A stretch of 64,000 nucleotides of DNA from positions 89,027-153,026 of the forward strand of contig CASELL010000001.1 of assembly GCA_949288805.1 (NCBI GenBank). Direction: 5' to 3'. A model generated the notes under the pieces. That model saw nothing but the letters and a program-made list of their open reading frames with translations, was not told where the DNA came from and searched no databases. Positions 3,398-46,900 of the stretch are shown in pieces. The stretch is from an uncultured Alphaproteobacteria bacterium. GTDB taxonomy: Bacteria; Pseudomonadota; Alphaproteobacteria; Rickettsiales; UBA1997. Position 1 is the first letter of the stretch. Each line of letters begins with the position of its first letter. The translations under genes were made by a program, and so were the position numbers.

Positions 3398-6300
3398 CTA
3401 TTTCAAAATCTCATTTAACAACCCTTGATAATCTTTAACTACCTCAAATTTAATTTGATTATCACTTACTACTGCAAAATGTTTTTTGGCACAAGATATT
3501 TTGTTATACTCAATATTACGAAGATCAAGACTAGAAATACTACCCTTAGTTTCAGCTATAAAATATATATGTTTTACCTTATCTTTATCAAAAGCAATAG
3601 CCCAATCAGGATTATAATTACCAATAGGAGTTTTTATATAAAAACCACTAGGCAATTTTGTATAAACAACAACATTATCAGCCTCTTCAAGTTCTTTAGC
3701 AAATTCTCTCTCAATATTAGAATCATATAGTAAATAATCATAAATATTTTTTTTAGTTTCTATCATGTTATTATTTACTACACCTTTTAGATTATGATTA
3801 GTAAAGATTTCATTAGTATATTCTCCTTCTTCACCCTCAATTTTTTTATATTTAATATAATCAACTATTAAAGTTGCCTTTTGTTCATTTATAATTTTAG
3901 AAAGTTTATTTATAAAGCTTTCAGGATTAATTTTAAACATATTAAAGACTTCAGGCTTCAATTTTTTTAAAATATCAATAATATCTTTTCTTGTCAAACT
4001 AGTTTTATCAACTAATTCTCCAATTAAATCATATGTGTTTTTATTTTCTATATTAGTAGTTTTATGATATGTTTTTTTCACATTATTACTTTGTTCTTCT
4101 ATATTATCAATAACACCATCAGCAATTTGAATAATAGTATGTTGTATATTTATTGATCCATTTGCCACATTTACCACATTTCTTACCAATTCTTCACTAT
4201 CAAAATCAACAATATAAAAAGTTTTTTTATTTATTTTATTCCATAATTCTTTAAATTCTTTTTTTTCAAAATTTATTTTATTTAATGAAATTTCAGTAGC
4301 TTTTATATTATCATTAACAACTTCAATATTTCCATTTTTACATACTTTATCTAAAACATCAATAATTACATCTTTTACATCATCCAATTCTTCATCCAAA
4401 ACAAGTTTATTTTCCCTTAAATCTTCATAATATTTATCAGTTAATTTACCTTTTTCTATATAATCATTTCTAATTAAAGTTTCATAAATACATATAGCTT
4501 TATTTTGATCAATTACTTCTTCATTTCCATCTTTATTTGTAAATACTCTATTTAAAAATAAATTACTATCAATAGTCGTCAATCTATTTCTAATATCTTC
4601 TTTAAACTCTTCTTGTAATTGTTGACTAAAACTTTCATAACTTTCACTAGCAATAATTGTCAATTTATTAATTTTATGAACTTCATTTTCAGTAACAAAA
4701 GAAGAATCTATTCTATCACCATTTTGATTTACACAAAGCCTCAAACCTCTTCCTATTTCCTGCTTTTTCTTAATTGTCGCATCACTTTCTTTCAAAGTAC
4801 ATATTTGAAAAACATTAGGATTATCCCAACCTTCCTTTAAAGCAGAATGTGAAAAAATAAATCTAACATCATTAGAAAAACTCAACAACAACTCTTTATT
4901 TTTCATTATCAAATCATAACCACTTACATCTTCTTTACTATTAACTCCATCAATAAAATGTTTATTTTTTTTATCCTGCGAGAAATAACCTTCATGAGTT
5001 CTTTTTACATCAATTTTTGTTAAATAATCAAAATATTCTTTTTCACCAAACCTGGGTTGTAAGGACTCAACAATTTTATTATATTCTTCTTCAAACATTT
5101 TAGCATATTCACCATTACTACTTTCTTCATTATCATAAACTCTATATTTTGCTACTTCATCAATAAAAAATAAAGATAAAACTTTTATACCATATTTATA
5201 CAATTCTCTTTCTTTCTCAATATGACTAATAATAGTTTCCCTAATTTGTATTCTTCTTAATTCTTTAATACTATTTTCATTACCTATAATTTGTCCTATT
5301 CTTAATTCAATACCATTTAAAAACTCAATCTTATTTTCCCTAGCATCAATAGTTTTAACAATAAAATTATTTTTATATTCTTGTAAATTATTAGATATAA
5401 AAAAAATATCATCGCCTTCCTCTATTTTTTTAAAAACTTTTCTAACTCCATTACTACCAAAAAAGTTTATTTGAAGTCTTGCCATAGGGGGCACATCTTT
5501 TGACAATATAATATTTTCAAAATAAATATAACCATTAGTATTTGCTTGATTCAAAAAAGTAATACCTTTAACACCTATCTTTTTTACAAGTTTTTTATTA
5601 TAAGCATCAACCGAGTCCAAAGAATAAACAAGATTAAAATTTTCTTTCAATGTCGCAGAATATCTCAAAGTAAACAAAGGATTAAATTCTTTTAATTTTT
5701 GTTTTGTAGAATTACCTTCAACACTCTGTGGTTCGTCAATTATCAATATAGGCCTTGTAGCAGATATAACATCAATAGGTGCTCTTGATCTAAACTCATC
5801 TAATTTAGAATATATTCTTCTTCCATTTTCTCCTTTAGAATTAAAAGCCTGCATATTTATAATCATTACACTAATATCTACACTACTAGCAAAATCATCT
5901 ATTTTACTTAAATTAGCAGAATCATAAATAAAATATTTTATTCTTTTTCCATATTCTTCCAAAAAATGATCTTCTGTAATTTTAAACGTTTTATAAACTC
6001 CTTCTCTAATAGCAACACTAGGCACAACAACAATAAACTTAACCCACCCATACCTTTTATTTAATTCATACATTGTTTTAATATATGTATATGTTTTACC
6101 TGTTCCTGTTTCCATTTCAACACTAAAATTATAGCTACTAGTTTCATTTTTATTTTTAGTAATATAAAGATCTCTAGACACTTCCAGATATTGTTTATTT
6201 TGTATTTTTTGTATATTAGCAAGAATAGTATTTTCTTCTAAATTAATATCACCATTTCTATAAGCATCATTTTCAAGATCAAGATTACCTTCTATAAAAC

Positions 6301-6412
6301 CATTATCTTTTAAATATCTTAAAGTCCCAGATTTATTATTACCTTCAAATATATCACAAATAGCATTACTAGCATCTTCTTGAAACTTTTGATGTTTAAA
6401 TTTTAATTTCAT
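3398..6412 (-). CDS. res: Type III restriction enzyme Res subunit (SF2 helicase/ATPase plus C-terminal PD-(D/E)xK endonuclease)
   Basis: Motif I METGTGKTYTY, motif II LIIDEPQS, late helicase motifs SALKEGWDNPNVF and QEIGRGLRL. C-terminal nuclease motif NPDWAIAF...IYFIAETKG. Confidence 0.9.
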   Translation of the reverse strand: MKLKFKHQKFQEDASNAICDIFEGNNKSGTLRYLKDNGFIEGNLDLENDAYRNGDINLEENTILANIQKIQNKQYLEVSRDLYITKNKNETSSYNFSVEMETGTGKTYTYIKTMYELNKRYGWVKFIVVVPSVAIREGVYKTFKITEDHFLEEYGKRIKYFIYDSANLSKIDDFASSVDISVMIINMQAFNSKGENGRRIYSKLDEFRSRAPIDVISATRPILIIDEPQSVEGNSTKQKLKEFNPLFTLRYSATLKENFNLVYSLDSVDAYNKKLVKKIGVKGITFLNQANTNGYIYFENIILSKDVPPMARLQINFFGSNGVRKVFKKIEEGDDIFFISNNLQEYKNNFIVKTIDARENKIEFLNGIELRIGQIIGNENSIKELRRIQIRETIISHIEKERELYKYGIKVLSLFFIDEVAKYRVYDNEESSNGEYAKMFEEEYNKIVESLQPRFGEKEYFDYLTKIDVKRTHEGYFSQDKKNKHFIDGVNSKEDVSGYDLIMKNKELLLSFSNDVRFIFSHSALKEGWDNPNVFQICTLKESDATIKKKQEIGRGLRLCVNQNGDRIDSSFVTENEVHKINKLTIIASESYESFSQQLQEEFKEDIRNRLTTIDSNLFLNRVFTNKDGNEEVIDQNKAICIYETLIRNDYIEKGKLTDKYYEDLRENKLVLDEELDDVKDVIIDVLDKVCKNGNIEVVNDNIKATEISLNKINFEKKEFKELWNKINKKTFYIVDFDSEELVRNVVNVANGSINIQHTIIQIADGVIDNIEEQSNNVKKTYHKTTNIENKNTYDLIGELVDKTSLTRKDIIDILKKLKPEVFNMFKINPESFINKLSKIINEQKATLIVDYIKYKKIEGEEGEYTNEIFTNHNLKGVVNNNMIETKKNIYDYLLYDSNIEREFAKELEEADNVVVYTKLPSGFYIKTPIGNYNPDWAIAFDKDKVKHIYFIAETKGSISSLDLRNIEYNKISCAKKHFAVVSDNQIKFEVVKDYQGLLNEILK

Positions 6413-6422: not shown

Positions 6423-8459
6423 TTACAATACCTTTATAGTGCAATTATTCATTTTAGATTTAATAATTTCATCGGCTGTAATTTTTTCAGCAGAATCAAC
6501 AAAACAACCATCCCTAAAAAATACTATTTCAGGCTTCAAATCTGCTATATATCTAATAACATTTTCATTTATATTTTTTTCAAAACAAGCAACCAAATTA
6601 TCAATTATATATATTTTACGATTATCAACAACTTCAATTTTATGTTCTATAGTCAATGGAAAACCATTTTCCAACAAACAAGAAAACAACAAATCTTCAT
6701 CTGTTCTATCTTGTTTAATATTAGAAACTAACCCATCTAACATTTCTTGAGTATAATTATTAGGTTCATAATAAACATCTTCCATATTGCTAGAATCAAC
6801 CCTAAATACTCTAAAACCAATATCTAGATCATTTTTACCTGTTGTTTCAACAATTTTATTGCCTGCTCTTCTAATTCTTTCTTTGCCTATTTCACAAATA
6901 TTTTTATAACCAGCTTTGAAAGCTTCACTATCTTCTTTACATTCTTCTTGTAATTGTACCATTATAAATTGTCTATTGCCACCATCTTCTGCATTTAAGT
7001 CCATCACTGCATGTGCTGTTGTGGCAGAGCCGGAGAAAAAGTCTAGGATTATGTCGTCGGGGGTGGTTGAAAGTTTGAGTAAATCATTTATTAAATAAGT
7101 AGATTTTGGATTATCAAAAACTTTTTTATTATTAAATAATAAATTTAATTCATTTGTTGCATTTGCATATTCAGTTTTATACAATATAGACTTACATGTT
7201 GTAGAAGCATATTCTAATAATAATTCATCCATTTCAGGTCTTTTTTTTTGTTTAATTCCATTATTATAAAAAATATCATTATTTTTTAATAGCTTATTAA
7301 AAGTTTCAAAACCGCTAGTCCATCTAACCTTTTCATTAAAAGAATTTATAGGTAAAATAAATTTAAATCCTTGTTTTTCATAAAAAGTTTTTAAATTTTC
7401 AATGTATGTATCATTAAATTGTTTTAAATTTTTATCATAAATTTTTTCAAATTCTTCTTTTGTTATTGAGTATAATTGATTATCTTTTAGTAAAATTGGA
7501 AAATACATATAAGGTCTTTTTTCTCTTTCTTTATCTTGTCCACTTTTTTGAAAAGTTATTTCATTGTAAAACCCAATATCATCTAAATATTTAAATTTAT
7601 TTTCAGTTTTTTTACCAAAAATATTTTCAGTTTTATTAAAACCATATTCTTTTATTTTTTCTTTATTTTTTGAATATATTAAAATTTTATGTCCGACTTC
7701 TGCTATAAAATTATCATTTTCTTTTCCTTTTAAATTATCTAAAATAAATAAAGAACTTATAAAATTTCTCTCTCCAAAAACTTCATCACATATTTTTTTT
7801 AAGTTTGCTTGTTCTCTATCGTCTATTGATATAAAAATTACACCATCATCTGTTAATAAATTTTTTGCTAATTTTAATCTAGAATATATCATTGAACACC
7901 AATCACTATGAAATCTAGGGTTAGTCTCTTTATTTTCTTTAAATTGTTTATTATCTTCTTCATCTCTATAATCAATTTCTTCTTTATATTCTTCATCATC
8001 AATAGTAAAATTATCATTATATGTAAAACTATCTTTACCGGTATTATAAGGCGGATCTATGTATATCATTTTTACTTTATTAAAATATGACTTTTGTAAT
8101 ATTTTTAACACATCGAGATTATCACCTTCAATATATAAATTTTTTGTACTATCCCAATTTTTACTTTCTTCTATACAAGGCCTTAAAGTTTTTGTAATTT
8201 TTTTATTTGCTTCTAATAAAGCCTCTTTTTTACCAACCCAAGTAAATTCATAACTTTCTACTTTATTATCTATAAGTTCATTTGATAATTCTTGTTTTAA
8301 TTTATTAAAATCAATTTTTCTAACTAGGTTGTTGTTTTCGTCAATGCTTTCTGTAAATACTTGAGGAAATAATTGTTCCATGATTTTAATATTATTATTA
8401 ACTATATCAATAGTTGTATTTTCTAATTTTTCAACTTTGAATAAATCATTTATTTTCAT
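6423..8459 (-). CDS. mod: Type III Mod-like N6-adenine (beta-class) DNA methyltransferase
   Basis: Motif IV MIYIDPPYNTG lies N-terminal to AdoMet motif I ILDFFSGSATTAHAV, which is the beta-class order typical of type III Mod. Ends 10 nt upstream of the res start. Confidence 0.9.
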   Translation of the reverse strand: MKINDLFKVEKLENTTIDIVNNNIKIMEQLFPQVFTESIDENNNLVRKIDFNKLKQELSNELIDNKVESYEFTWVGKKEALLEANKKITKTLRPCIEESKNWDSTKNLYIEGDNLDVLKILQKSYFNKVKMIYIDPPYNTGKDSFTYNDNFTIDDEEYKEEIDYRDEEDNKQFKENKETNPRFHSDWCSMIYSRLKLAKNLLTDDGVIFISIDDREQANLKKICDEVFGERNFISSLFILDNLKGKENDNFIAEVGHKILIYSKNKEKIKEYGFNKTENIFGKKTENKFKYLDDIGFYNEITFQKSGQDKEREKRPYMYFPILLKDNQLYSITKEEFEKIYDKNLKQFNDTYIENLKTFYEKQGFKFILPINSFNEKVRWTSGFETFNKLLKNNDIFYNNGIKQKKRPEMDELLLEYASTTCKSILYKTEYANATNELNLLFNNKKVFDNPKSTYLINDLLKLSTTPDDIILDFFSGSATTAHAVMDLNAEDGGNRQFIMVQLQEECKEDSEAFKAGYKNICEIGKERIRRAGNKIVETTGKNDLDIGFRVFRVDSSNMEDVYYEPNNYTQEMLDGLVSNIKQDRTDEDLLFSCLLENGFPLTIEHKIEVVDNRKIYIIDNLVACFEKNINENVIRYIADLKPEIVFFRDGCFVDSAEKITADEIIKSKMNNCTIKVL

Positions 8460-8468: not shown

Positions 8469-9073
8469 TTATTTTAAAAGGCTTTTCAACCTTTTAATCT
8501 CTTGAGTTATTTCAAATTTTTTGTCTAGTTGTTTTTCATTTTTAGTCTTGTTTTCTAATACTTTTATTTGTTTAATAATTTTCTCTTGTTCTATATTGTT
8601 GATAATTTCTTCTGACAACTGTTTTTCTCCATTAAAATTATCAAGAGATATTTGATTAATAAAATTTCTAAAAATATTTTCAATTTTGTTGCCATCTATT
8701 GTTAATTTTATATCAGATAGCCAACAAGTATTAAATGTTTTTATTATAACATTATTTTCTTTGTAGGAAATATATAATTTATATCTCCCTTCATATTCTA
8801 ATATAAAAACTATAAAATATGGTATAGCTTTATCTATTGCTTCTAAAACTTTATTATCAAGATTAATATTTTTTAATTTTATGTTGAAAAATTGTATTTC
8901 TTGTTCTTCTTCTTTGATGTTTAAAGTTTTTGAACTTATAGAATTAGTCCATATTATTTTTTCTATATTATTAACAAACTCTTTTTTTAGTTGTGAGTTT
9001 TATTTGCTTTTTGATAAAATTTTTCTTTTGGTATAATTTTGTTTATTTCGGTTGATTCGGGTAAACTTAACAT
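8469..9073 (-). pseudogene. DUF4391-family gene interrupted by a -1/+2 frameshift near A-runs (not in the supplied ORF track)
   Basis: The minus-strand ATG at 9071-9073 overlaps the SNF2 stop (ATGTTAA). It reads MLSLPESTEINKIIPKEKFYQKANKTHN* with the stop at 8987-8989. A second frame is open from about 8997 to TAA at 8469-8471: NSQLKKEFVNNIEKIIWTNSISSKTLNIKEEEQEIQFFNIKLKNINLDNKVLEAIDKAIPYFIVFILEYEGRYKLYISYKENNVIIKTFNTCWLSDIKLTIDGNKIENIFRNFINQISL... That frame has no in-frame ATG/GTG/TTG near its 5' end. Both halves fit my recollection of DUF4391 (N-terminal LPxST..NK.IPK.KFY, central IPY.I.F.LE..G.Y). Confidence 0.7.
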
Positions 9074-12000
9074 AAATCCTCCTCAATTACAAAAAAACAA
9101 ATTAATTCAAAATCATTTAAACTTTTTAATTTATTTATAGTAGTACCACCAGAAGAAAACAAACTATCAACATCTTTTTTATCTTTTATTTCTACTATTG
9201 ATTCTATTGATTTTTCAAGTAGTTTACTATAAAAATCCATTTTCTTGCCATCATTAGTTTTTTCATTAAAAACTTTACATAATTTTTTATTTACATCTTT
9301 TCCACTACAATATAATCTTAATTTATCTAATAAATCTTTTGTTTTTAGATAATCATAAAATATTTCTCCATTGTTTTTTATGTAAATTAAATAATAAGGG
9401 TCTAAAATATTTTGATTGTTGCTTTCATTTTCACTTTTTAATAAATAAATAACTCCTGCGGGCATTTCTTCGTTTGCCTCTATTACTGTATTCATTCCAT
9501 TAGGAGTTTTTTCTATACTAGGATGTTTTTTAATATAATCTATTAATTCAAGTCTAAAATCATTAAAACCAAGATCCATTATTGATATATTATTATCTAT
9601 TTCTTCTAGATCTACAACTTCGTTTTTGATTTTTTCTAATTGTTTTTTTCTATATTCTAATTCAATTTCTTCTTCGTTTATATTATCGTCATTACTAACA
9701 CTAATTACACCGGCCATTTTATTTGTTAATTTATCTTTTAATTTTATATAATCGTCCAATTCTACTGGAGGCCAGAAATTAACCATTTGTATTACTTCAT
9801 TTTTACTGCCTATTCTGTCAATTCTACCAAATCGTTGTATTAATCGAACAGGGTTCCAATGTATATCATAATTTATTAAATAATCACAATCTTGTAAGTT
9901 TTGACCTTCACTAATACAATCAGTTGCTATTAAAATATCTATGTCTTCATTATCTTGTTGTAATAAATCTCTTTCTTTTGATATAGGAGAAAATTCAGTT
10001 AAAATTGAATTGATATCGTTATTAACTTTATTAGCATTAGTTTTTATAGTATTACCAGTTATTAGGGCAGTATTTAAATTAAAATTATCTTTTATGTAAT
10101 TTACTAAATTGTCATAAAGATATATAGCAGTATCACTAAATGCAGTAAAAATTATTATCTTTTTATTGTTTTTGTTTATTGGATTGTTTATTTTATTATT
10201 TATTGTTTCTTTTAATTTATGTAATTTATAATCTTTATCTTTATTTATTAAACTTGTGCTATTATATAAACTTTCTAAGATTTGTTTATCTTTTTCAAGA
10301 TTTGCTTGCCAACTATAACAATCTATATCAGCTAAATCTATTTCCATTTTATTATTAATAATAGTCATATTGTTTGAATCTTCATAATCAAGATCATTAA
10401 AATCTTCATTATTTAAACTATAATTATTAAATTGACTACTAAAAACATCTTTTGTTATACTAAAAGCATCTAGTTCTTCTTTTTTATTTAAAAAATCGTT
10501 TATTGTTTTTAATGTATAATCAATTTTCTTTATTATTGTTTGTAAAGTTTGATTAAAAGAAAAAACAGAACTTTCCATTCTTTTTAATAGATTAATTGAC
10601 ATTAATTTTACAAGGCCTTTCTCTCTATCGCTTTGTTTAATTTTGTCGTTTTCGTTTTTGTTGTATTTTTCAACTCTACTTGGTAATAAAAAACTTGTAG
10701 GATTATAAACGCATAAAGTTAAATCCATTAAATCTTGTATTATTTCGTTATAATTAATATCGTCTTGATTTATTGTTAAAGTTGGGCTTTCATTTATTGG
10801 TTTTAGCCTTTTTGGAAATCTACCTATATCGTCAATATTATAAAACTTTTCAATATTTTTTCTTGATCTTGATATAGTTACATCATCTAATAATTTAAAA
10901 AAATCTTCATCAAGGCTATTTATTAAATCTTGAGTAGTTCCATTTTTCTTTTTACTCCATTCATTAAATCTTTGTTGCGCTTGTTTTAAAACTTTATCTA
11001 TTCTATCGTTTCCTTCTTCGTCTTCGTAAGCTAATTTTAATTGGTTCTTTAAGTCAGTAAATCTATTATTTACTGGAGTAGCAGATAACATCAAAACTTT
11101 TGTTTTTACTCCTTCTTTTATTACTTTATTTAATAATATATTATATCTATTATATTTTAATTCGTTTTCTTCAGTTAAATAAGAAGAACCACCATTTCTA
11201 AAATTATGTGATTCATCAATTACTACTAGATCAAAATTGCTCCAATTTATTCTTGATAAATCTACTCCACTTTCAGATATTCCCTTTTTTCTCGTTAAAT
11301 CACTATGAAATAATACAGTATAATTAAATCTATCTCCCAAAAGTGGGTTGTTTTTGTAATTATGTTTGTAACTGTCCCAATTGTTATATAATTTTTTAGG
11401 GCATAAAACTAAAACATCTTTATTTCTATTTTCATAATATTTTATTACAGAAAGTGCTGTAAAAGTTTTACCAAGTCCAACACTATCAGCTAGAATACAA
11501 GCATTATACTTTTCTAATTTATTAATTATCGATAAAGAAGCAGTTTTTTGAAAATCATATAATTTATTCCATATTTTACTTTTTTTAAAACCTACTGCTT
11601 CATTTGGTAAAGTATCCTCATCAAGATTTTCTATATAATCTTTAAATAAATTATACAAAGTAAAAAAATATATAAATTCAGGAGAGTTTTCATTATATAT
11701 AGTTTCTATATTGTTTATTACTTCTTCTGTTACATCTTGTAATTTATCTTTATCATTCCAATTTTCATCAAATCTTTTTAATACCCTATCATTTTCAATT
11801 TTGCTAATACAATAATCAATATTACTATTTTCAACCCCTAGGCTCGTAGTTGTAAAATCAATAATTTGATTATATAGTATAGGCATTTTATCTTGATTTT
11901 GTATTATCATATAGGTAGACATATAATCTGGGTGTTTATTTGATTTAAAACGTGCCTTTGTTCTTATCCATTCTATACATTCTTTTGCTATTGCCTTTTG

Positions 12001-12294
12001 TTTTAATTCATTTCTTAATTTTACTTCGTACTTTGTCCCATAAATATTTCTTTCTCTTTCTAATCTAGGTATAAAAAATTCTCTTTTTTCTTTTGGAGTT
12101 TTTTCATTTAAAAAGGTAGGTGATGTAAAAATAAATCTAAAACTTTTAACTTTGTTTAACTCTTTTCTTAACTCTTGGTAGGCATATATTGAAAAACAAT
12201 TTGCACTCACAGAAATATTAGCTTTTTCCTTTATTTCTGAAGATAAATCGTCTTTTAATATTTTTGTTATATTATCAAAAGTTTCGTTTGACAT
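9067..12294 (-). CDS. SNF2/Rad54-family helicase-related protein, first gene of the RM-like operon
   Basis: Motif I ILADSVGLGKTFTA, motif II LVVIDESHNFRN, motif III MLSATPVNN, C-terminal lobe ATDCISEGQNLQDCDYLINYDIHWNPVRLIQRFGRIDRIGS. The roughly 240-aa N-terminal domain is unassigned. Confidence 0.9.
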   Translation of the reverse strand: MSNETFDNITKILKDDLSSEIKEKANISVSANCFSIYAYQELRKELNKVKSFRFIFTSPTFLNEKTPKEKREFFIPRLERERNIYGTKYEVKLRNELKQKAIAKECIEWIRTKARFKSNKHPDYMSTYMIIQNQDKMPILYNQIIDFTTTSLGVENSNIDYCISKIENDRVLKRFDENWNDKDKLQDVTEEVINNIETIYNENSPEFIYFFTLYNLFKDYIENLDEDTLPNEAVGFKKSKIWNKLYDFQKTASLSIINKLEKYNACILADSVGLGKTFTALSVIKYYENRNKDVLVLCPKKLYNNWDSYKHNYKNNPLLGDRFNYTVLFHSDLTRKKGISESGVDLSRINWSNFDLVVIDESHNFRNGGSSYLTEENELKYNRYNILLNKVIKEGVKTKVLMLSATPVNNRFTDLKNQLKLAYEDEEGNDRIDKVLKQAQQRFNEWSKKKNGTTQDLINSLDEDFFKLLDDVTISRSRKNIEKFYNIDDIGRFPKRLKPINESPTLTINQDDINYNEIIQDLMDLTLCVYNPTSFLLPSRVEKYNKNENDKIKQSDREKGLVKLMSINLLKRMESSVFSFNQTLQTIIKKIDYTLKTINDFLNKKEELDAFSITKDVFSSQFNNYSLNNEDFNDLDYEDSNNMTIINNKMEIDLADIDCYSWQANLEKDKQILESLYNSTSLINKDKDYKLHKLKETINNKINNPINKNNKKIIIFTAFSDTAIYLYDNLVNYIKDNFNLNTALITGNTIKTNANKVNNDINSILTEFSPISKERDLLQQDNEDIDILIATDCISEGQNLQDCDYLINYDIHWNPVRLIQRFGRIDRIGSKNEVIQMVNFWPPVELDDYIKLKDKLTNKMAGVISVSNDDNINEEEIELEYRKKQLEKIKNEVVDLEEIDNNISIMDLGFNDFRLELIDYIKKHPSIEKTPNGMNTVIEANEEMPAGVIYLLKSENESNNQNILDPYYLIYIKNNGEIFYDYLKTKDLLDKLRLYCSGKDVNKKLCKVFNEKTNDGKKMDFYSKLLEKSIESIVEIKDKKDVDSLFSSGGTTINKLKSLNDFELICFFVIEEDLC

Positions 12295-12321
12295 TTTTAT
12301 AAAAATAATAACTGATTAGAT

Positions 12322-12366
12322 TTTATAATTAAACTAATAATTGTCAATTAATAGTTTAATTATAAA
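12322..12366. repeat. 45-bp near-perfect AT-only palindrome centred on TTGTCAA/TTGACAA
   Basis: tttataattaaactaataattg t caattaatagtttaattataaa has 22-nt arms with one mismatch. It lies between the stop of the 1234-aa gene (12420) and the SNF2 start (12294). Confidence 0.6.
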
Positions 12367-12419: not shown

Positions 12420-15400
12420 TTATATTATTGGCTCTAAATCATAAGATTTATAAGAATCGATTTGATTTTCAATAAATTCTTTAACATTTTTATAAAAAAT
12501 TTCTTGATCCATATTTTTAATTATCGATTTATTCTCTAAAAATTTTTCAATTTCATTTTTTTTATTAATTAAATCATCTATTTTATTTTCAAAGCCCATA
12601 TAATCTAATAACATTTTATATAAATATCCACATTCAATAAGATTAGTAATTTTATTGCATTCTAAATTTTTATGATTTTTATATTTAATATTTTTATTGG
12701 CTTCTTTATAGTATTTTTTAATAACCATTAAAATAGTAACATCTGTAATGTCAAAATTATATAAAATAATGCCAATATATCTATATATTTCTTTTGTATC
12801 TTTATTATTTCTAACTAATTCAAATAAACCCTGAAACCATTCAAAATTTGGCTTAATATCTATTTTATTTAATATATCAAAATTTAATTTATCGTTGTTT
12901 TTTAAATATTCAATTACAAAATCATAATAAAATTTATAATCTTCTTGAAATTTCTTTTTTAACATTTCTGGAATAGTATTATCTTTTTTTATAAAAGAAT
13001 ACATAGATTTTTCTATATCTATAATATCATTAATATTTTCTTCACAAAATTTTTCATTACTATATAATTTTTCAAAAAGACTTTCTAAATAATAACTAAA
13101 CATATCATCTCTAAATATTTTATCATTATTGAAATTTGTACATTCTTTTAATACTTTAAAAATTAAATCTATATTATTTACATGTTCATGATTTATTAAA
13201 CAAAGTTCAACATATTTTTTTTTATTATATTTTTCTGTATTATTTAAATATATATTAAAAATTTTATAATCTTCAATATAAAAAAATGAACAATTTTCCC
13301 AATAATACTTTTCATTATTTTTAATAATTTTTTTTACTTCATCATCAAATGTTTTATATGATAAAACTTTTTCAATAAACAATACATTTTTATCTAAAAT
13401 ATCAAAAGCTTTATTAAATATATTTTCTTTATCTAAATAATTTAAAAAAATAAATAATTCATGATATTTTTCTTTTCCAAATAATTGTTTAATTGTGTTT
13501 GTTTTATTAATTTTTGTTTTAGCTAATATTTTAAATAAATATTTTTCATTTATTTTTTCATATAATTCTAAAAATTTATTTATATCGTTATCATAATCTC
13601 TTAAAAATTTATCTAATTCATTAATTGTCTTTAATTCTAGATCTTTATCTTTATAAAACTTATAATGATTAATATTACTAAAATATATTACATATTTTTC
13701 AAATTTATCTATATTTATTTTATTACAAATTTTTTCTAATTTTTTTATATTATCATTATCTTTTCTATATTCTAAATATTTTATATTTTCTTTAAATATT
13801 TTTGTTAATTTATTTTTAGATTCGTTATCAAATTTATTAAAATCAATATCGTTTAATAAAGATATATATTTTTCAATAATATCTTTATCTTCCAATAAAT
13901 TAATATTATTACAAAATTTAACAGGTTCTTTTTTTAGGAAATTAAAATATTTTTCTAAAAAATATTGTTTAATACTATTATTTAAAGTTAGTTTTTTAGG
14001 ATATAATTCATTATTTGCTCTCCTTATAAAAATGACAACATTTTTTGCATTTAAAACTTCAAATATAATATTTTTAAACAACTCTTTATCTTTATATTCT
14101 TCTAAAATTTCTCGTAATTCAAAACTATTTAGTATATTTTTATTATCAATCATAAATATTGTTTTTATAAGGTATTCAAAATATTCATATATATTTTTAT
14201 TATAAAATAAATATAATAATTCTTCCAATACACGATCATCATAATTTTTATATTTATACAATATGTATTCAAATATCTCTATAATATCTTTTATATTATT
14301 AATTTCATTTTCTTTGATCATACAATCAATTTTTGTCAAAAACTGCGGAATATCAATCAAAGCTAAGTTAATTAATAATTCAAAATTATTTTTATTAATA
14401 AATTTCTCTATTAATTTATTAAATAATTGCTCAAACCAAACATATTTATAATTATATTTTTTATATAACATATTAAATATATTAAAAACACCAGTAATTA
14501 AATAGTTTGAATATTTATTGTCCTCTTGTTGTAATACTTCATTTAATAAAAAACTTTCTATTTTATCTAAAATAGATTCTATTTCTTTTTCATCAAAATT
14601 ATAGCATTGTATAAAATTAGAAACATAATAAACTTTACAATAATTATTTTCTCTTTCTAATATTAAATTATTTTCTTTTAACTCTTTTATAGTTTTATTA
14701 AATTTATCTTTTATAAATTGTTGTTCATAATTACCATTACCCCATCTATAAAAAGGTAAAATATTTAAAAACAAATCTTTTTGATCTATTTTAAAATTAT
14801 TTATTTTTAATAAACTTTGATGTAAATATTTTAAATTTGTATCACAATCATTAATTAAATCAATATAATTAATAATATTAAATTTGTTTTTAAAATAATA
14901 TAAAACACCTTCTTGTGTTATATTTTCTAGATATATAGTATTATAACTATTAAGAAAATTATTTTTAAAGTCATTACCAATAGGAATTATAATTTTTGTT
15001 TTTTTAGATAAAATAGACATAATTTCATAATTGGGATTTTTATCTATAATATATGGTACTATAATACTATTAATATAAGAATATTTAGATATTTCTAATA
15101 GTGTTTCATTTGTAGTAATTATTTGACTTTTAAAATAAATATTATAGTTATTATATTTTTTTAGATATGATATCAAAAACAACAAAGATTCTTCTTGAGA
15201 ATTTGATTTTATATATAAAATATCGCATTCTTTAAGTTTTTTATCAATATCTTCTTTTTCATATTTTCTTGATAATATTAATTCTTCATTCAAAGGTATT
15301 TTTGTTGAATTTTTCCAAGTTTCAAAAAATTTATCAAACTCATCATAACCATCAATTTTTTGATTACATAAATTTATTTTTAACCAGTTTTCAGTAGACT

Positions 15401-16124
15401 TTGACATTATTAATAAACTATTTAAATCTTGTTTATCAATAATTTTAACATCATAAAAAAAATTCTTTTTTTTATATAAGTCAATTAATTTATTTTTTTT
15501 AGTTTCTTCTGTGTTTTGTTTAGTAATAAAGCAAAAAGTTTTATTTTTGTTTTCTTCATTTTTTAATCTTTTGTTTATATCTAATTCAAATTTTTTGCCC
15601 CAATCTTCTTCTATACCAAATTCAAAAATTATTTCTTTATTACCTATACCAAATTTTGTATCAAAATTAAATTTAGCATAACCATCTGAACCTGACAAAT
15701 AAACTCCATCTTTAATAGGTATTCTAATTGAATCATTATTTCCATATATATCAACAATTAATCTGAGAATAAATTCAGCGAAAGTTTCTCCATTAGAAAT
15801 AATAGAAATATAATCTTTTTTTACAATCATAAGATTTTCATTTTTTAAAAAATTTTTTAATTCTGTTTTTGTAAGATTAAAATCTTTACAAGTATCTTCA
15901 ATTCCAAAATTATTGTATGAATTAATAATATTCCATTTTTCTTCATTACTTCTATCTTCAATTTTTACTTTAAAATTATTTTCTTTAGAAATTTTAATTA
16001 AAGTTTTTTGAGATATATTAAAATACTCTGCTGTTTCTTTTAAAGAATGTGTTTTTCTATATTCTTTAATTAAATTAATAGTTTTTAAATCTTTAATTAC
16101 AACTCTTTTTTTTCTTTCTACCAT
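12420..16124 (-). CDS. Giant orphan protein (1234 aa): N-terminal helix-turn-helix module(s), possible Mrr-like nuclease-type segment, long helical-repeat body
   Basis: Uninterrupted 3.7-kb ORF with a GAGGT SD 7 nt upstream. HTH-like SLKETAEYFNISQKTLIKISKEN and a second GIEDTCKDFNLTKTELKNFLKN. The segment FAEFILRLIVDIYG...LSGSDGYAKF...EIIFEFGIEEDWGKK resembles restriction-endonuclease-like N-domains only loosely. No Walker A found. Confidence 0.55.
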   Translation of the reverse strand: MVERKKRVVIKDLKTINLIKEYRKTHSLKETAEYFNISQKTLIKISKENNFKVKIEDRSNEEKWNIINSYNNFGIEDTCKDFNLTKTELKNFLKNENLMIVKKDYISIISNGETFAEFILRLIVDIYGNNDSIRIPIKDGVYLSGSDGYAKFNFDTKFGIGNKEIIFEFGIEEDWGKKFELDINKRLKNEENKNKTFCFITKQNTEETKKNKLIDLYKKKNFFYDVKIIDKQDLNSLLIMSKSTENWLKINLCNQKIDGYDEFDKFFETWKNSTKIPLNEELILSRKYEKEDIDKKLKECDILYIKSNSQEESLLFLISYLKKYNNYNIYFKSQIITTNETLLEISKYSYINSIIVPYIIDKNPNYEIMSILSKKTKIIIPIGNDFKNNFLNSYNTIYLENITQEGVLYYFKNKFNIINYIDLINDCDTNLKYLHQSLLKINNFKIDQKDLFLNILPFYRWGNGNYEQQFIKDKFNKTIKELKENNLILERENNYCKVYYVSNFIQCYNFDEKEIESILDKIESFLLNEVLQQEDNKYSNYLITGVFNIFNMLYKKYNYKYVWFEQLFNKLIEKFINKNNFELLINLALIDIPQFLTKIDCMIKENEINNIKDIIEIFEYILYKYKNYDDRVLEELLYLFYNKNIYEYFEYLIKTIFMIDNKNILNSFELREILEEYKDKELFKNIIFEVLNAKNVVIFIRRANNELYPKKLTLNNSIKQYFLEKYFNFLKKEPVKFCNNINLLEDKDIIEKYISLLNDIDFNKFDNESKNKLTKIFKENIKYLEYRKDNDNIKKLEKICNKINIDKFEKYVIYFSNINHYKFYKDKDLELKTINELDKFLRDYDNDINKFLELYEKINEKYLFKILAKTKINKTNTIKQLFGKEKYHELFIFLNYLDKENIFNKAFDILDKNVLFIEKVLSYKTFDDEVKKIIKNNEKYYWENCSFFYIEDYKIFNIYLNNTEKYNKKKYVELCLINHEHVNNIDLIFKVLKECTNFNNDKIFRDDMFSYYLESLFEKLYSNEKFCEENINDIIDIEKSMYSFIKKDNTIPEMLKKKFQEDYKFYYDFVIEYLKNNDKLNFDILNKIDIKPNFEWFQGLFELVRNNKDTKEIYRYIGIILYNFDITDVTILMVIKKYYKEANKNIKYKNHKNLECNKITNLIECGYLYKMLLDYMGFENKIDDLINKKNEIEKFLENKSIIKNMDQEIFYKNVKEFIENQIDSYKSYDLEPII

Positions 16125-16422: not shown

Positions 16423-17730
16423 TTACTTATCAAACAACCAATCTAAAACATTTAATCTTTTAATTCCTTTTATATTGCCATCATCTTCGTCCATAGTAAG
16501 TAAGTATTTTGGATAATTATCATCTATACTATTTAAAGATCTCAATTCTCTTTCTAATGTTTCTTTAGAATTATATGTATAAAAAGCGACCTGATAATAT
16601 TCAGTTAATCCTTCTTTTTGTGCTACAAAATCTACTTCTATATTGCTTCTATTATTTATTCTGCCAACATATACCTTATAACCTCTTCTTAATAATTCTA
16701 GATAAACTATATTTTCTAATATTCTACCATGATCTCCTTCTTTATAACCCAATAAAGCAGATCTTAAACCTAAATCTACCATATAATATTTTGAATTAGT
16801 ATTTGTTAATATTTGTTTACCTTTAATATCAAATCTATCACATTTATATAATAAATAACTATCCAAAAGTCCATTTAAATAATTAGCAATAGTCATAGCA
16901 GATAAATTTTGAGGAGTATTTTTTAAACTTTTTTCTATTCCTCTAATTGAAGTTTCGTTTCCTATATTGTCAAATAAGAATCTTGTTAAAGCATCAAGTT
17001 TATCAACATTTGATATATTGTATCTTTTAATTATATCTTTTTGTAAAGTACTTGTATATATAGTATCATTTAAGTAATCATTTATTAATTGTCTATTGCC
17101 TAAAAAACTAACTGTTTGTGGGAAACTACTTTCTGTTATATATTTTTTATATAAACTAAAGGAATCATTTCTATTTAAATAATCTTCTTTATTAAGTGAA
17201 ATAAATTTTGTAGTTTCATTATAAGCTATATAATATTCTTTAAAAGAATATGGTAACATTTTAATTTCTATATATCTACCACCCAAGGCATTTGCTATAT
17301 CACTAGAAAACATATAGGCATTAGATCCAGTTAAATATATGTCTATATTTCCTTGTAATCTTAAAGTATTAACTATTTTTTCCCAACCTTCTAATAATTG
17401 TACTTCATCTATAATTAAATAATTTATTTTATTTTTATTTATTTTTTTTAAAATGAAATCTAACATTTTATTATAATCAACTAAAAAATTTTTATCATTA
17501 TAAATAAGACCAATTTCTCTTACTTGTAATAAATCTTCTAAATTAATACTTATGATATTATTAGTTTTAGTTTCTAAACTAGATTTAAAATAAGATAATA
17601 AACTAGATTTTCCACATCTTCTAACGCCAGTAATAATTTTTATAATATCAGTTTTTCCAGATAAAGATTCTAATTTATCAGAATAAACTTCTCTTCTAAA
17701 AAATATTTGTCTACTTGATTTATTAGTCAT
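16423..17730 (-). CDS. AAA+ ATPase of the COG1373 type (AAA domain plus C-terminal DUF4143)
   Basis: Walker A GVRRCGKSSLL, Walker B YLIIDEVQLLEGW. The C-terminal part (LENIVYLELLRRGYKVYVGR...EVDFV) is typical of DUF4143 proteins. The track ORF starts at 17787, but the Met at 17730 (MTNKSSRQIF) is the more likely start. Confidence 0.8.
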   Translation of the reverse strand: MTNKSSRQIFFRREVYSDKLESLSGKTDIIKIITGVRRCGKSSLLSYFKSSLETKTNNIISINLEDLLQVREIGLIYNDKNFLVDYNKMLDFILKKINKNKINYLIIDEVQLLEGWEKIVNTLRLQGNIDIYLTGSNAYMFSSDIANALGGRYIEIKMLPYSFKEYYIAYNETTKFISLNKEDYLNRNDSFSLYKKYITESSFPQTVSFLGNRQLINDYLNDTIYTSTLQKDIIKRYNISNVDKLDALTRFLFDNIGNETSIRGIEKSLKNTPQNLSAMTIANYLNGLLDSYLLYKCDRFDIKGKQILTNTNSKYYMVDLGLRSALLGYKEGDHGRILENIVYLELLRRGYKVYVGRINNRSNIEVDFVAQKEGLTEYYQVAFYTYNSKETLERELRSLNSIDDNYPKYLLTMDEDDGNIKGIKRLNVLDWLFDK

Positions 17731-17838
17731 TATTCTAATTTTATTAATATAATTAAGTATAATATACAAAATTACAAAAATCAACAATTTTGTCTAATAT
17801 ATTAAAAAAATAAACAAAATTTTAATTATTTATTATAA

Positions 17839-19237
17839 TTAAGAATCAATAAATACAATACTATTTAAACATTTATCAATGTTATCTTTTGTTTTTTCTA
17901 GCTTTATATTATCAGTATCGCCGTATTTGTTTTTGAAGTCGGTGGCTTGTTGTTCTAGTTTGTTGAGAAATTGTGAAACTTCTTTATAATTACCATTTTC
18001 AAAGTGATAGCTTAGATTACTACTGTTATTATTTTTATAATCATTTAATATTTTATTACATTCTTTTATACCTTTAAAAAAATCAACAAAATTACCAAAT
18101 TTTATTGTAAAATCTGTTTGACGAAAACAATAATTTATGTCAATAAAATTTGTAGAAAGTGTTACTCTATAACAAAATTTTTTATTAAAACATTTAAGTA
18201 TATTTTCTTTCTCCTTTTCATATTTATTAATATCATACAAAATACAATCTTTATTATATTTAAAGCCCTTTCTAGCAAATATTTCATTAACAATATAATC
18301 CCAATAAAATTCACTTTTATATTTATTATAAAATTCAAAAAGATAATCAAAAATTAAGTTAAATTGCCTACAAGTTATATTATTTGATGATGCCAGTTTA
18401 TTTAAAGATAAATAAATACTCACTATTATAAACATCTTTTTCTTCTTTAATATCAAAACTAAACTTTTCTTTTAGTTTTGTTTTTATATAACTTAAATAG
18501 TCAATTTTAGATAATTTAATTTCTTCTACAAAAAATCTTACAAAATAATTTTCACCATCTGACTCTTCTTTAAAATTATACATTGCTTGTAAAGAATGAT
18601 TTAAGGCCCTTCTATTAGCAAAATAAAAAATAATTATTCCATCGATATCAAAAAAATGTTTTGTTGTTTCAAGTATTTTCATGGCATAGTCAGGCCTACA
18701 TCTGTCTAATTCATCAATAATTAGAACAAGTTTTTTTGAATCTGTTTTTTTAATTAAAGTTGTTAAAGATTTTTTAAATTCTGTTATTGGGTCTTGTGGT
18801 TTTTTCTCAAAATATTCAATAAATTCTTTAGCAGAAGGGCAAAAAACATTCGAAGCAACTTTAACAAGTTCATACATAACACAAGCACTTTTTTGAATAA
18901 AATCTTTAATTTTTTCTAATCCAATTTTACTTCTATAATATTCTAATATTTTATTACAAATTAAATTTAGTGGTTGTTCGTAGTAATCGTTTTCCCAAGC
19001 ACTAAAATAAACGGCATCAATATTTTTGTCTAATAAAGTTTTTGTTAATGCTCTGGCAAAGTATGTTTTTCCGGTTCCAAAATCGCTTTCAATTAAAAAT
19101 ACGTTTCTTAATTCTTCAAAGTATTTTTGTTTGCCAATTTCTAGTTCGGGGTGTTCTGTTTTTGTGAAGTTGAATTCTTCTGTTTTTGTGATTATTTTGT
19201 CTAGTAGTTTTTGTCTTTCGGGAAATAGGTCTGGCAT
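17839..19237 (-). pseudogene. KAP-family P-loop NTPase split into two overlapping ORFs (279 aa + 205 aa) by a frameshift
   Basis: The upstream ORF has Walker A SDFGTGKTYFARAL and the KAP signature LVLIIDELDRCRPDYAMKILETTKHFF. The ORFs overlap at 18398-18456 in different frames. ...VYNSEYLFIFK* and ...SIYLSLNKLASSNNITCRQFNLIFDYLFEFY align in succession with IYNSIYIKIAF...NLREINYAFRFIEYYF of the intact paralog. Confidence 0.65.
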
Positions 19238-19259: not shown

Positions 19260-20783
19260 TTAATATAACATTTCAAAACATTGTCTTAAAATTGATTTTT
19301 CTTTAAAATAATTTATATTATGAAGTAAATTCATAATTTTAGGATATTCATTAGATTTTTCATTATTTTCATCTTTTACCATCATAAAATCAAAAAACTC
19401 TTTATCAAAAATATATTTATAATTTTCATAATTTAAAGATTTAATTTTATTATATATTTCGTCATTATATTCTTTATTAAGCGATCCATTAGCGCAACTA
19501 ATATTATTAAAAATACATAAACCAATAAAATTTTTAATATTATATTCCTTATCTAATCTACAAGAAAAATTAATATTTTTTAAAAAATTACCTAAAATAT
19601 TAATATTTATATCTACAATATCATTTGTCTGATTATCAAATAATTTTTTATAAATTTCATTATTCTTTGTTTTTAAACAAATTAAAAACATTAAAGATAA
19701 AACATATAAGAAATCTAATTCTTCATTAAAATAATACTCAATAAATCTAAAAGCATAATTAATTTCTCTTAAATTTAATTTAAATAAATCAATAAATAAA
19801 TACGATATGTAATTTATAAACTCTTTTTCACCAAATGTAGGATAACTACCAAAAGCTATTTTAATATAGATACTATTATATATTTTATTTGTAATATCAG
19901 CCTCTTTAATTTTATTCTTTATATACTTTTTTAAATCAATATTATTATCAACATTTCTCAAATCAAAATGATAATCAAAAAATTTCTTAATATAACTATC
20001 AAAATCCATACTCAAACCATAAACAACTTTCATTGAAGATTTTAAATTATTGTCATCAACTGCTATTAAAAATACCATATTTTCAACATCATATATATGA
20101 TTTATTGCTTCTAAAAATTCAACAGCATAGTCAGGCCTACATCTGTCTAATTCATCAACTATAATTAATAATTTTGTGTTTTTTTGATTTTTATTTAAAG
20201 ATTCAATATATTGACCTAATACATTTTGTATATTTTGTATATATTTTTTGTAATTTTTATATTCTTCATCAATATTGTTTTGTTGTAATTGTTCTAGAAA
20301 ATCTTTATTTAAACAAGCATCTTTAATTTCTTTTATTATTTCTTTACTTTCTTCTTTTATATATAATTTATCTAACAATAAATTAAAAAATGATTTCCCA
20401 ATTACAGGTAACGAATTTTTGCCAACTTTTGTTGCTATTGTGGTAAATTTAGATAAAGTATCTTTAAAACTTTTTTTAATATTCTTTTCGTCTATAGAAT
20501 CTAAAATAGACAAACCAATACTTAATATAGGATTGTTTAAAACATCATCTTGCCAAGCATTAATTTTTAAGATTTTAAAATTATTTTTAAAATCAAAATC
20601 TTCATGTTCTCCTTCTATAAAATTTTGTAAAGAATTTAAAAAATATGTTTTGCCAGTTCCATATTTGCCATATAAAGCTAAAGTATATGTTTTGTGCTCT
20701 TTGTTTGTTTCTGAAAATATTTCAATATTTCTGATAATACTTTTTATTAATTCTTTTCTTGCTTCTAATAAATCTTCAAACAT
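19260..20783 (-). CDS. KAP-family P-loop NTPase (intact paralog, 507 aa)
   Basis: Walker A LYGKYGTGKTYFLNSL and KAP Walker B region LLIIVDELDRCRPDYAVEFLEAINHIY. Confidence 0.8.
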   Translation of the reverse strand: MFEDLLEARKELIKSIIRNIEIFSETNKEHKTYTLALYGKYGTGKTYFLNSLQNFIEGEHEDFDFKNNFKILKINAWQDDVLNNPILSIGLSILDSIDEKNIKKSFKDTLSKFTTIATKVGKNSLPVIGKSFFNLLLDKLYIKEESKEIIKEIKDACLNKDFLEQLQQNNIDEEYKNYKKYIQNIQNVLGQYIESLNKNQKNTKLLIIVDELDRCRPDYAVEFLEAINHIYDVENMVFLIAVDDNNLKSSMKVVYGLSMDFDSYIKKFFDYHFDLRNVDNNIDLKKYIKNKIKEADITNKIYNSIYIKIAFGSYPTFGEKEFINYISYLFIDLFKLNLREINYAFRFIEYYFNEELDFLYVLSLMFLICLKTKNNEIYKKLFDNQTNDIVDININILGNFLKNINFSCRLDKEYNIKNFIGLCIFNNISCANGSLNKEYNDEIYNKIKSLNYENYKYIFDKEFFDFMMVKDENNEKSNEYPKIMNLLHNINYFKEKSILRQCFEMLY

Positions 20784-22102: not shown

Positions 22103-23227
22103 CTAGATAATATTTCTAGCTATTTTATCAAAACTATTACTATTTTCTGTAATTAGATTGATTATATCTTTACAACGTTCTTCATCAATATCAAACATAC
22201 TACCTATATTAATTAGATCATTATTACTTATATCTTTACCTTTACCATTTATTGTTGTTGTATGTTCTCCATTTATTCCATTGGATTTTGTTAAATCATA
22301 TGCTGGGCTTAATTTCCAATTTTCTTTGCTATCCATTAAAAAAGAAAAGTTTTTTGAGTGGTCATCTTTGTTTTCTATTATAACATTAAAACACATTAAT
22401 CTATACATTTTTATAACTTCATTAAAATCTTTTGTAATTAATTTTGTTAATTTTAATAAATCTATATAGTCAATAAAAGTTGTTCTAAAATCAATATTTA
22501 ACAATCCAGCAACTGAATGTAAATGTAATTTTTTATTGTCATCAATTCTATCAAATCTTTGAGTAGCAAAATAACCAACACAATTTTTTGAAGGCAATAA
22601 AACTGTTTTAGACATTTCTATATTTGATTTTTTAGCAATAATAGAATAAACATATTCTTTTAATCCTATATCATAATCATCCATATTTGATCGAAACTTA
22701 ATTATGTAATCTGTGCCTTTTTTAGATATAATATTTTTATTGTTTAATTTCACTGTAATTTTAGGTCTAGCACCACAAGATGAACCATTTAGTTTTAGTA
22801 AATCATCTACAAAATAATTTGAATTATTTAATACTTCAATAGATTCGTTTGCTAATTTATCAAGTTCTATATTGTTTATGTTATTTTCTAAAATATTATT
22901 TGCTGGTTCATATTCTAATGCTCCAAACCCATTGTCTCCAACAAAACTTAAATAATCAAATTCATTTACATTTTTAATATTATTTTTTTTAAAATATCTA
23001 TTTATTAATAATCTACCCCAACCATCAGCAATGTTATCTTTAAAAACCCCATGTAAATCAAAATTATTTGTATATATTTGATTATTAAATGGCAAGGTTA
23101 TTGGACTTATATTAATATTTTTACTTAAAAAATCATTATCATATTGAAAATATATTTTTTTATTAGAAATTGCTAATTCTCCAACTTTAACTCTATTATT
23201 CTCAATATTTATAAAAACATTCATCAT
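22103..23227 (-). CDS. hipA: HipA-family toxin kinase (type II TA)
   Basis: N-terminal coupling region VKVGELAISNKKIYFQYDNDF. Catalytic-loop-like ENKDDHSKNFSFLM. 4-nt ATGA overlap with the upstream XRE gene. Confidence 0.85.
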   Translation of the reverse strand: MMNVFINIENNRVKVGELAISNKKIYFQYDNDFLSKNINISPITLPFNNQIYTNNFDLHGVFKDNIADGWGRLLINRYFKKNNIKNVNEFDYLSFVGDNGFGALEYEPANNILENNINNIELDKLANESIEVLNNSNYFVDDLLKLNGSSCGARPKITVKLNNKNIISKKGTDYIIKFRSNMDDYDIGLKEYVYSIIAKKSNIEMSKTVLLPSKNCVGYFATQRFDRIDDNKKLHLHSVAGLLNIDFRTTFIDYIDLLKLTKLITKDFNEVIKMYRLMCFNVIIENKDDHSKNFSFLMDSKENWKLSPAYDLTKSNGINGEHTTTINGKGKDISNNDLINIGSMFDIDEERCKDIINLITENSNSFDKIARNII

Positions 23228-40288: not shown

Positions 40289-40297
40289 AACTAACTC

Positions 40298-43200: not shown

Positions 43201-44122
43201 TATCCCTAAAACATTTATCTAAAGCATATTTATATGAACCAAAAAAACTCCCTTTTGTAGGAAAAGACTTATCTTGATTGGATGAATTGGTTAGAGAAGA
43301 ATTTATCATATCTAGAGTTATATCTATTGATGTATTTGTTTTAGTTCTAAGATAAGACTCTAAATCTAGTGAAGCATATGTTAACCATTCATCTCCACAC
43401 AAAGCTAAAGTATCAAAATCTTTATCTGCTTTTTTATATTGAAAATAAGAAAGAGTTTCTTTTATTACATAAAAAACAGCAGATAAACCAAGTATCATAC
43501 CTAATTTAACTACAGTTTTTACTCTTTTTGGCAATTTTAGAATAAGAAACATAGCTATACAAACAGCAAAATTTCCCCAATAAATACCTTGACATATTGG
43601 AGTTTTGTTTGTTGGGTCAAGAGAAAAATCATCTTCTCCAGCTATTATCTCTGTTAATTTATCTATACCAGAAGAAGCCAATAATATTAATAAAGGAGCC
43701 AAAAGGGAACTAAAAGCACTTTTACTATTTATAAAATTTGCAACAGTATAAAAAGTCGATATACATAAAACAGGAGCCAATAAAACATCAACTACAATAT
43801 CCCATGCCCAAGCTCCAACTTGAGGACCAATTTCATTAAGACAATTTATACCAGCCAATATTCCGCCACCTTTTGAAGATTGACATTTATTAAAGTCTCC
43901 TTTTTTACTTTCACCATAAAATAAAACACCACCTGGTTTACATGTAAAACCAGTATCAACGGAATATGTATATTTTATACCTTTTTTACCAGTATTAATT
44001 AATGATCTAAGTCTATCTTTTGCTCCAATAGAATCTTCTGCAAAAGATTCAACACTAATAGAAAAAAATAAACAATTAAAAAACAATATAAAAACTAAAA
44101 ATATTCTAAAAAACTTTTTCAT
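40298..44122 (-). CDS. Giant VirB6/TrbL-like T4SS inner-membrane protein (rvhB6-type paralog, about 1274 aa)
   Basis: The track ORF begins at 44155, inside virB4. The Met at 44122 (MKKFFRIFLVF) has an AAGGAG SD and lies 10 nt after the virB4 stop. Signal peptide, Cys-rich domain, TM block with YLALFDTLDCKISRY and RKIFDSWINSILKLIFRPMF. Confidence 0.7.
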   Translation of the reverse strand: MKKFFRIFLVFILFFNCLFFSISVESFAEDSIGAKDRLRSLINTGKKGIKYTYSVDTGFTCKPGGVLFYGESKKGDFNKCQSSKGGGILAGINCLNEIGPQVGAWAWDIVVDVLLAPVLCISTFYTVANFINSKSAFSSLLAPLLILLASSGIDKLTEIIAGEDDFSLDPTNKTPICQGIYWGNFAVCIAMFLILKLPKRVKTVVKLGMILGLSAVFYVIKETLSYFQYKKADKDFDTLALCGDEWLTYASLDLESYLRTKTNTSIDITLDMINSSLTNSSNQDKSFPTKGSFFGSYKYALDKCFRDKSVDFCNLIFQKENGNITVANIDTYLDVKYKQYREFLYGGVEYANNFDSNCIDPRPERRRYEGVKKGDTKSQLYYFRGTESANFACDRFLEKNTDEYLNAYKCCIEASQKTICIRNRKENIGNKFNYDGDVYVFCSIYDEDGDCSLSTGIFTENENSNINIACEQVKNVIEDTKNGVTTNSSEVGSYSYYKTEYGLYYKCPSGYGPDNGFFNCLSIPESEYSENAFSIPPEDQEEFDKNVAKIDYSSICDYKPKNTDTVSFKIKRSDQSITGEYEKYCVETYNLCPYNFPILGGTEEVGQDFMSTTQNDIPISYKDGVYVEDYGSNNTNVISKLSTMDNELNCEVRGDETSGFIKECGGNCIEKIQGDRVGEYEIKILPCYNKPSNFCQIDRHCVYIKKFEPSEVNINSPYVSTACINGVGSSHNFTNYSRNYGGATTRVFTAPFVECFVETFKNMLFNKAGHTKCLITGEKPDLNNNCLSGEEYKEGENLEKYNIDGPFKKLQESLMEIVKIILAIAIVLYGFKIIIKNNSGINVEDITHFILTSIFVIYFTMTTSWKEPVFNAVYGTSNYIVNLSSKIIRFDRVSSTMYDSIYKNPNYQGCYFFKHDEIPNNYEDYGLGKSYLALFDTLDCKISRYFGITTDNVTNIPIISFFIAGVFSFGFAIMTIMPFILLTIGIIAIAIKIALQFITYSLELTILLFMAPLVIPLYLIEKTRKIFDSWINSILKLIFRPMFTILSTMLFLLIFDKYYIGDAKFYGVREPVRDIYCGKICKIDNNNFYYIYDNPSSSGDEFVSMVQECEEKSKGKVIDLGNESPICIVSSQEVIGNSGSTLIDIFISGFAGFPSVIKNSMDFFKIFSDMIFLLLLLGIFDKFIGDVGGEIFGKLGESNFTVSGILSKASTAMIKIANVTNALPKKAIKGLTSKIIESNSNRTDNKIKRRMGADYYNKNKETIRNESLKKSKEE

Positions 44123-44132
44123 ATCGTCTCCT

Positions 44133-46834: not shown

Positions 46835-46860
46835 TATAAAAAAGTATATACCTTGCTAGA

Positions 46861-46888: not shown

Positions 46889-46900
46889 GTAAAATTTTTT

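Follow-up and report, generated by a model that had tools for sequence, protein, structure and literature searches.

The second gene of an SNF2–DUF4391–Mod–Res operon has very probably been knocked out by the deletion of a single T, an ordinary, genuine and recent event that is confined to one strain and is not a regulated or reversible switch. The gene lies on the minus strand of the window, that is, the whole 64,000-nucleotide stretch of DNA analysed here, in an apparent gap of about 600 bp between the SNF2 gene and mod. An earlier note on this DNA had proposed that the gap hides a DUF4391 gene disrupted by a single frameshift, and had offered four explanations for the disruption, namely a sequencing or assembly error, an inactivating mutation, slipped-strand phase variation and programmed frameshifting. 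Both the hidden gene and its single frameshift are confirmed, and the inactivating mutation is the only one of the four explanations left standing, with a T loss that is specific to the strain and relatives that are intact. Translation from the conserved ATG would stop at 28 codons, and the other 176, which lack a start codon, would not be expected to be made; the window strain presumably makes no functional DUF4391 protein and seems to tolerate its loss. For annotation, the ‘gap’ is a frameshifted DUF4391 pseudogene, and neither intergenic DNA nor a phase-variable locus. The features that the argument needs are the following:

8987–9073, minus strand: N-terminal DUF4391 fragment, ATG at 9073–9071, 28 codons, premature TAA at 8989–8987
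8469–8999, minus strand: C-terminal DUF4391 part, out of frame with the ATG at 9073, 176 codons (8999–8472) and a stop at 8471–8469
Between 9001 and 9000, minus strand: lesion site, one T missing from GCAAATA[T]AAACTC (alignments and blastn gap list)
8982–8988, minus (coding) strand: A7 run (T7 on the plus strand), with no role in the lesion
9067–12294, minus strand: SNF2-family helicase gene, 1075 aa, GLGKT at residue 273 and DESH at residue 360, intact
6423–8459, minus strand: type III mod, 678 aa, DPPY at residue 135, intact
3398–6412, minus strand: type III res, 1004 aa, ResIII helicase domain and C-terminal endonuclease domain, intact
12320–12347, minus strand: best promoter-like site, TTGACA-16-TAAAAT, upstream of SNF2, 11 of 12 matches, a match to the consensus only

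When the two frames are joined, their product matches Pfam DUF4391 (PF14335) over model positions 1–230 of 232 with 134.2 bits against a cut-off of 29.9 (E 9e-39), which is far beyond chance and makes the locus a full-length member of the family by its family model. It is not an intact single reading frame, with a 1-nt deletion at codon 25 and a stop after 28 codons. The ORF list and a three-frame translation agree with the earlier note on the first frame, whose peptide reads MLSLPESTEINKIIPKEKFYQKANKTHN up to the stop. Its ATG is conserved, as orthologues begin at the equivalent position, and the fragment contains IPKEKFY, the most conserved, invariant motif of DUF4391. The second long frame, said to run to 8469 without a start of its own, was likewise found as described: it is bounded upstream by a TAA at 9002–9000, and a scan for ATG, GTG and TTG found none before a TTG at 8618. 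Both stops involved in the break are TAA, and table 11 gives a normal reading of ORFs longer than 1000 codons, for which reasons an alternative genetic code was rejected. A protein search returned intact orthologues of 201 aa at 99%, 95% and 91% identity.

The comparison with these relatives locates the lesion to the base. At the DNA level, the window reads GCAAATAAAACTC where 5/5 related contigs read GCAAATATAAACTC, so that it lacks the second T, and the interruption is present in none of the five. The context of the lost base, ATATAAAC, is non-repetitive and contains no homopolymer; it is the deletion that creates the A4 run at 9001–8998 and the frame-3 TAA at 9002–9000. The earlier note had placed the frame switch in the A4 run and proposed a missing A. 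The position holds, as the lesion falls inside the present A4 run, but the base does not: adding an A restores the frame and yields Lys (KANKNSQL), whereas the ancestral residue is Ile and all intact orthologues carry KANINSQL. Over 7270 nt the window is 99.56% identical to the related contig L001, with the missing T as the sole indel. Apart from the deletion, the two DUF4391 genes differ by only 3 nt and the window copy has no additional stop, from which we conclude that the lesion is recent. Among intact close orthologues, dN/dS is 0.31–0.34 at a dS of about 0.15, which indicates purifying selection, and in 74 of 76 distant species a single uninterrupted ORF holds the DUF4391 match.

The broken gene is embedded in a compact operon. 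Its ATG overlaps the last codons of SNF2 (ttATGttaa) with GAGGAGGA just before it, and the ATG of mod, at 8459, follows 9 nt past the DUF4391 stop; the 605 bases are thus part of a tightly packed transcription unit. The promoter-like site at 12320–12347 is, on its sequence, the likely start of the operon, and a search for terminator-like sites between 8200 and 12600 found none. Mod and Res match N6_N4_Mtase, ResIII and RE_endonuc in Pfam, MTase_III (E 1e-195) and REase_III (E 1e-287) in PADLOC, and PRK15483 in NCBIfam with an E value of 2e-107 that nevertheless falls below the equivalog cut-off. An N6-adenine methyltransferase with DPPY beside a protein with helicase and endonuclease domains is the composition of a type III restriction–modification (R-M) system. 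The order SNF2, DUF4391, mod, res on one strand recurs wherever the flanks are present among the 76 distant loci, and the window has the same order; this position between SNF2 and mod–res is an empirical feature established here and lies outside the Pfam definition of PF14335.

A gene that is intact in the organism and lost its T in base-calling, assembly or polishing has little chance of being the right explanation. In its favour, the source is seemingly metagenome-derived, and the window does carry one indel of its own, 5 nt at 18414, that is missing from two other same-strain assemblies. By looking up the SNF2, Mod and 1234-aa proteins of the window, we found three further assemblies of the same strain, all of them T-less:

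Logan ERR10610584: T absent, 100% identical to the window over 15.2 kb
ENA ERZ16268199: T absent, 1–3 mismatches to the window
Logan ERR10610587: T absent, 1 mismatch to the window in 9.8 kb

These come from two sequencing runs and two pipelines and were assembled separately from the window, as the 5-nt deletion at 18414 occurs in the latter only. The T-less assemblies represent one strain (≥99.98% identical) and are technical, not evolutionary, replicates, in which the allele at the T site was judged from assembled contigs. Gene callers left a matching 607-nt gap in all three. In other samples of that run series, namely ERR10610649 and the ENA assemblies ERZ16268098 and ERZ16268266, the T is present in an otherwise identical assembled context. 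Because the loss recurs in three assemblies and two runs while sister samples assemble the intact allele, it is very unlikely to stem from random misassembly and unlikely to stem from a systematic, context-specific assembly or base-calling error. The lost base also sits outside any homopolymer, and its absence is the only indel in the 7.27 kb shared with L001. The sequencing or assembly error raised in the earlier note gives way, in all probability, to a real deletion.

Slipped-strand phase variation, by which length changes of the neighbouring A runs would turn the gene reversibly ON and OFF, is highly improbable. Type III R-M loci are textbook cases of phase variation (for example, PMC5084427 and the phasevarion literature), and a real homopolymer polymorphism between strains, A9 versus A8, exists in the adjacent mod. 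At the DUF4391 frame change, however, there is no hypermutable repeat: what was lost is a T in non-repetitive sequence, the A4 run arose through that loss, and four A's are far shorter than tracts known to vary, the variable homopolymers of Neisseria meningitidis being predominantly of at least 8 nt (PMC5084427). Tract-length polymorphism among close strains is equally lacking at the site, with an A7 run of identical length in 9/9 sequences and all four same-strain assemblies in one state. We also considered the A7 run itself as the switch and rejected it, as it never varies and begins inside the frame-1 stop codon TAA, so that no change in its length would repair the frame. A/T runs abound in the window, whose GC content is about 23%: 1344 of them are exactly four bases long and 117 exactly seven; since they are so numerous, such runs near the lesion are expected by chance, and they are commonplace neighbours of the break and not its cause. 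The sole tract of the phasevarion type in this locus is the A9 in mod (7241–7249, T9 on the plus strand), which is A8 in the sister loci L002 and L003 and, judged by sequence, is the better candidate for phase variation.

There is only a very slight chance that recoding rescues the gene, through a −1 ribosomal frameshift or transcriptional slippage at AAU-AAA-A that would yield a full-length protein with KANKNSQL at the junction. The short overlap of the frames does contain AAAA, and a −1 slip of tRNA-Lys there would give the full-length product. Yet an X XXY YYZ heptamer is missing from the overlap (AAU AAA ACU CAC AAC UAA), the 100 nt that follow lack structure (minimum free energy −8.8 kcal/mol, z = −0.82 against shuffles), and the arrangement is limited to one strain, with single ORFs in 5/5 close and 74/76 distant orthologues. 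Appreciable transcriptional slippage takes a longer run than four A's. Low-level spontaneous frameshifting at AAU-AAA-A may occur, and the programmed frameshifting that the earlier note had suggested finds no footing in the locus.

A functional split gene, in which a C-terminal protein translated from a start of its own would combine with the 28-aa peptide to restore activity, is scarcely credible even though the break falls between two predicted secondary-structure elements (helices 17–22 and 27–36), because the downstream frame has no ATG, GTG or TTG until 8618, which leaves just 49 aa, and no Shine–Dalgarno sequence, the 28-aa piece holds a strand of the central sheet as well as IPKEKFY, and such a split recurs at none of the 76 distant DUF4391 loci. 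A restart at a nearby codon was rejected for the same lack of an in-frame start codon before 8618.

In sister strains, the operon is broken in other ways. In L002 and L003, DUF4391 is intact and mod carries a 2-nt (AC) deletion at window position ~7470, about 220 nt upstream of the A9 tract, together with the A9-to-A8 change, giving products of 336 and 271 aa. In L082 and L083, a deletion of about 3.3 kb between two 9-nt TAAAATTAA microhomologies (window 8702–8710 and 12015–12023, minus strand) has joined SNF2, cut at codon ~91, to the final ~79 codons of DUF4391, creating a chimeric 170-aa protein (P0004; L082:10001-10513, L083:1318-1830); Mod and Res are retained intact. Three unrelated lesions in strains that are 94–99.6% identical fit a dispensable defence locus that is lost piecemeal, and the island may be in the course of being dismantled by different routes in sister strains. 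In type III systems Res relies on Mod for DNA recognition, and a mod-null is viable for that reason. In the window strain, which was assembled from two runs, SNF2, Mod and Res are intact and DUF4391 is broken, which argues against DUF4391 acting as an essential antidote to the other three proteins. Natural DUF4391 nulls with the other three genes intact speak, in the same way, against an indispensable self-protection factor and offer a starting point for experiments. As a separate observation, the centre of mod (window 7053–7702) is unalignable to that of L082 and L083 (678 versus 642 aa); it is presumably the target-recognition domain, and the divergence suggests a specificity swap between sister strains.

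The family to which the broken gene belongs comprises more than 2000 sequence clusters. The distant species sampled include Alpha- and Gammaproteobacteria, Clostridia, Actinobacteria, Saccharibacteria, Planctomycetes, Bacteroidota, Treponema and a Woesearchaeote, and the intact protein measures 200–270 aa in nearly all of them. The best match in GTDB representative genomes is 42% identical, and a search of JGI metagenome contigs for close relatives found none. The 99%-identical orthologue was modelled with AlphaFold on a 53-sequence alignment; the model reached a pLDDT of 90.7 and a pTM of 0.82 and predicts an alpha/beta domain (residues 1 to ~145) followed by a C-terminal helical hairpin (153–200). 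Foldseek searches with this fold against the PDB and BFVD gave no significant match, as did a sequence-profile search of the PDB, in which the weak hits to Abraxas, eS17 and coiled coils were set aside as helical or coiled-coil noise. DUF4391 had no match in PADLOC or NCBIfam, and the family is absent from PADLOC-DB v2. In the full-text literature, DUF4391 or PF14335 turned up only in an enrichment table and in an apparent typo for DUF7941, with no functional study. A further locus, in Pararhodobacter marinus (L056:8001-8719), has a DUF4391 match that ends at about residue 100 with a res fragment directly after it, and looks like another independently truncated one.

DUF4391 is thus a fixed component of an SNF2–DUF4391–Mod–Res cassette across many phyla, with a confidently predicted fold that matches nothing solved. 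Obligate synteny, apparent translational coupling to SNF2 and the joint loss of both genes in one strain hint that it might be a non-enzymatic accessory or coupling subunit that works with the SNF2 helicase alongside Mod–Res. A wider reading, speculative and on balance doubtful, is that nature has knocked out the locus independently at least three times, the frameshift being one case (the others being the double frameshift in mod and the SNF2–DUF4391 deletion) and that together they reveal an unnamed, four-component, multi-phylum defence system in which DUF4391 couples an optional helicase module and its loss is tolerated or even selected for. If this were true, the window strain would be a ready-made DUF4391-null for testing the function of the family. 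We find the by-products of the analysis, that is, an unnamed conserved four-gene cassette, a fold without a solved relative, natural nulls and the A9/A8 polymorphism in mod, more interesting than the frameshift itself.

The surroundings of the operon, from about 2700 to 23300, look like a defence island. Besides the four-gene cassette, it holds two KAP NTPases, one of them weakly QatA-like (19260–20783), an AAA_14–DUF4143 ATPase (16423–17787) and a HipA-family toxin gene (22103–23227). Directly upstream of the operon is a 1234-aa ORF (12420–16124, minus strand) of 16–17% GC, which has no match in Pfam, NCBIfam or PADLOC; sister strains have it too, but none of the 76 distant DUF4391 loci does. 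The second KAP-family P-loop NTPase gene (17839–19237, minus strand) is split into ORFs of 279 and 205 aa by the 5-nt deletion at 18414 (CTTTG on the coding strand, between TATT repeats); the 5 nt are present in ENA scaffold_107, which has a complete 467-aa gene, and in the Logan ERR10610584 contig, and the deletion must be a variant private to the window or a mistake of assembly. Further along, the stretch from 34661 to 50539 on the minus strand contains two very large ORFs of 1875 and 1285 aa without an NCBIfam match, after which come a VirB4 type IV secretion ATPase gene (44133–46538) and, at 46901–50539, a gene resembling the gene-transfer-agent baseplate protein ‘megatron’. The synteny also includes ExoD and a long RpoD, which together with the ‘megatron’-like gene hint at an alphaproteobacterium.

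Several known systems invite comparison. The cassette resembles SNF2-containing defence systems (DISARM with DrmD, Hma, and the BREX-related HKD+Snf2 plus methylase) in placing a large SNF2 helicase beside an N6-adenine methyltransferase in a defence island (PMC12839542, PMC11232893), and the best PADLOC match of its SNF2 protein is the ‘HKD+Snf2’ cluster C3a139 (E 8e-118). An HxK(x)4D motif is absent from the N-terminal ~240 aa of that protein, for which reason a phospholipase-D-type nuclease activity may be lost or absent. In contrast to those systems, the neighbours here are canonical type III Mod and Res with DUF4391, and there is no DrmA, DrmB, DrmC, PglZ or DUF3780. Assignment to DISARM, which is defined by DrmD above its cut-off with DrmA and the DUF1998-containing DrmB, does not hold: the SNF2 protein scores 161.6 bits against a cut-off of 610 with the DrmD model NF038317, and a Pfam scan of five proteins of the locus found no DUF1998 domain.

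With the phasevarions of Haemophilus, Neisseria, Helicobacter and Moraxella, the locus shares a type III R-M operon and frame-disrupting indels that differ between close strains; theirs arise in a long simple-sequence repeat inside mod, whereas here an accessory gene is hit at a non-repeat site without length polymorphism. As in the programmed −1 frameshifting of dnaX and of IS element transposases, two overlapping frames jointly encode one protein, but the slippery heptamer, the stimulatory structure and a conserved frameshifted arrangement are all missing here. The closest parallel is with the frameshift pseudogenes of bacterial defence islands, with which the DUF4391 gene shares a strain-specific, single-base deletion outside any repeat, no secondary lesions, and damage to neighbouring defence genes in sister strains through unrelated indels and a microhomology-mediated deletion; it differs from them in nothing essential, save that the affected gene here belongs to an uncharacterised family.
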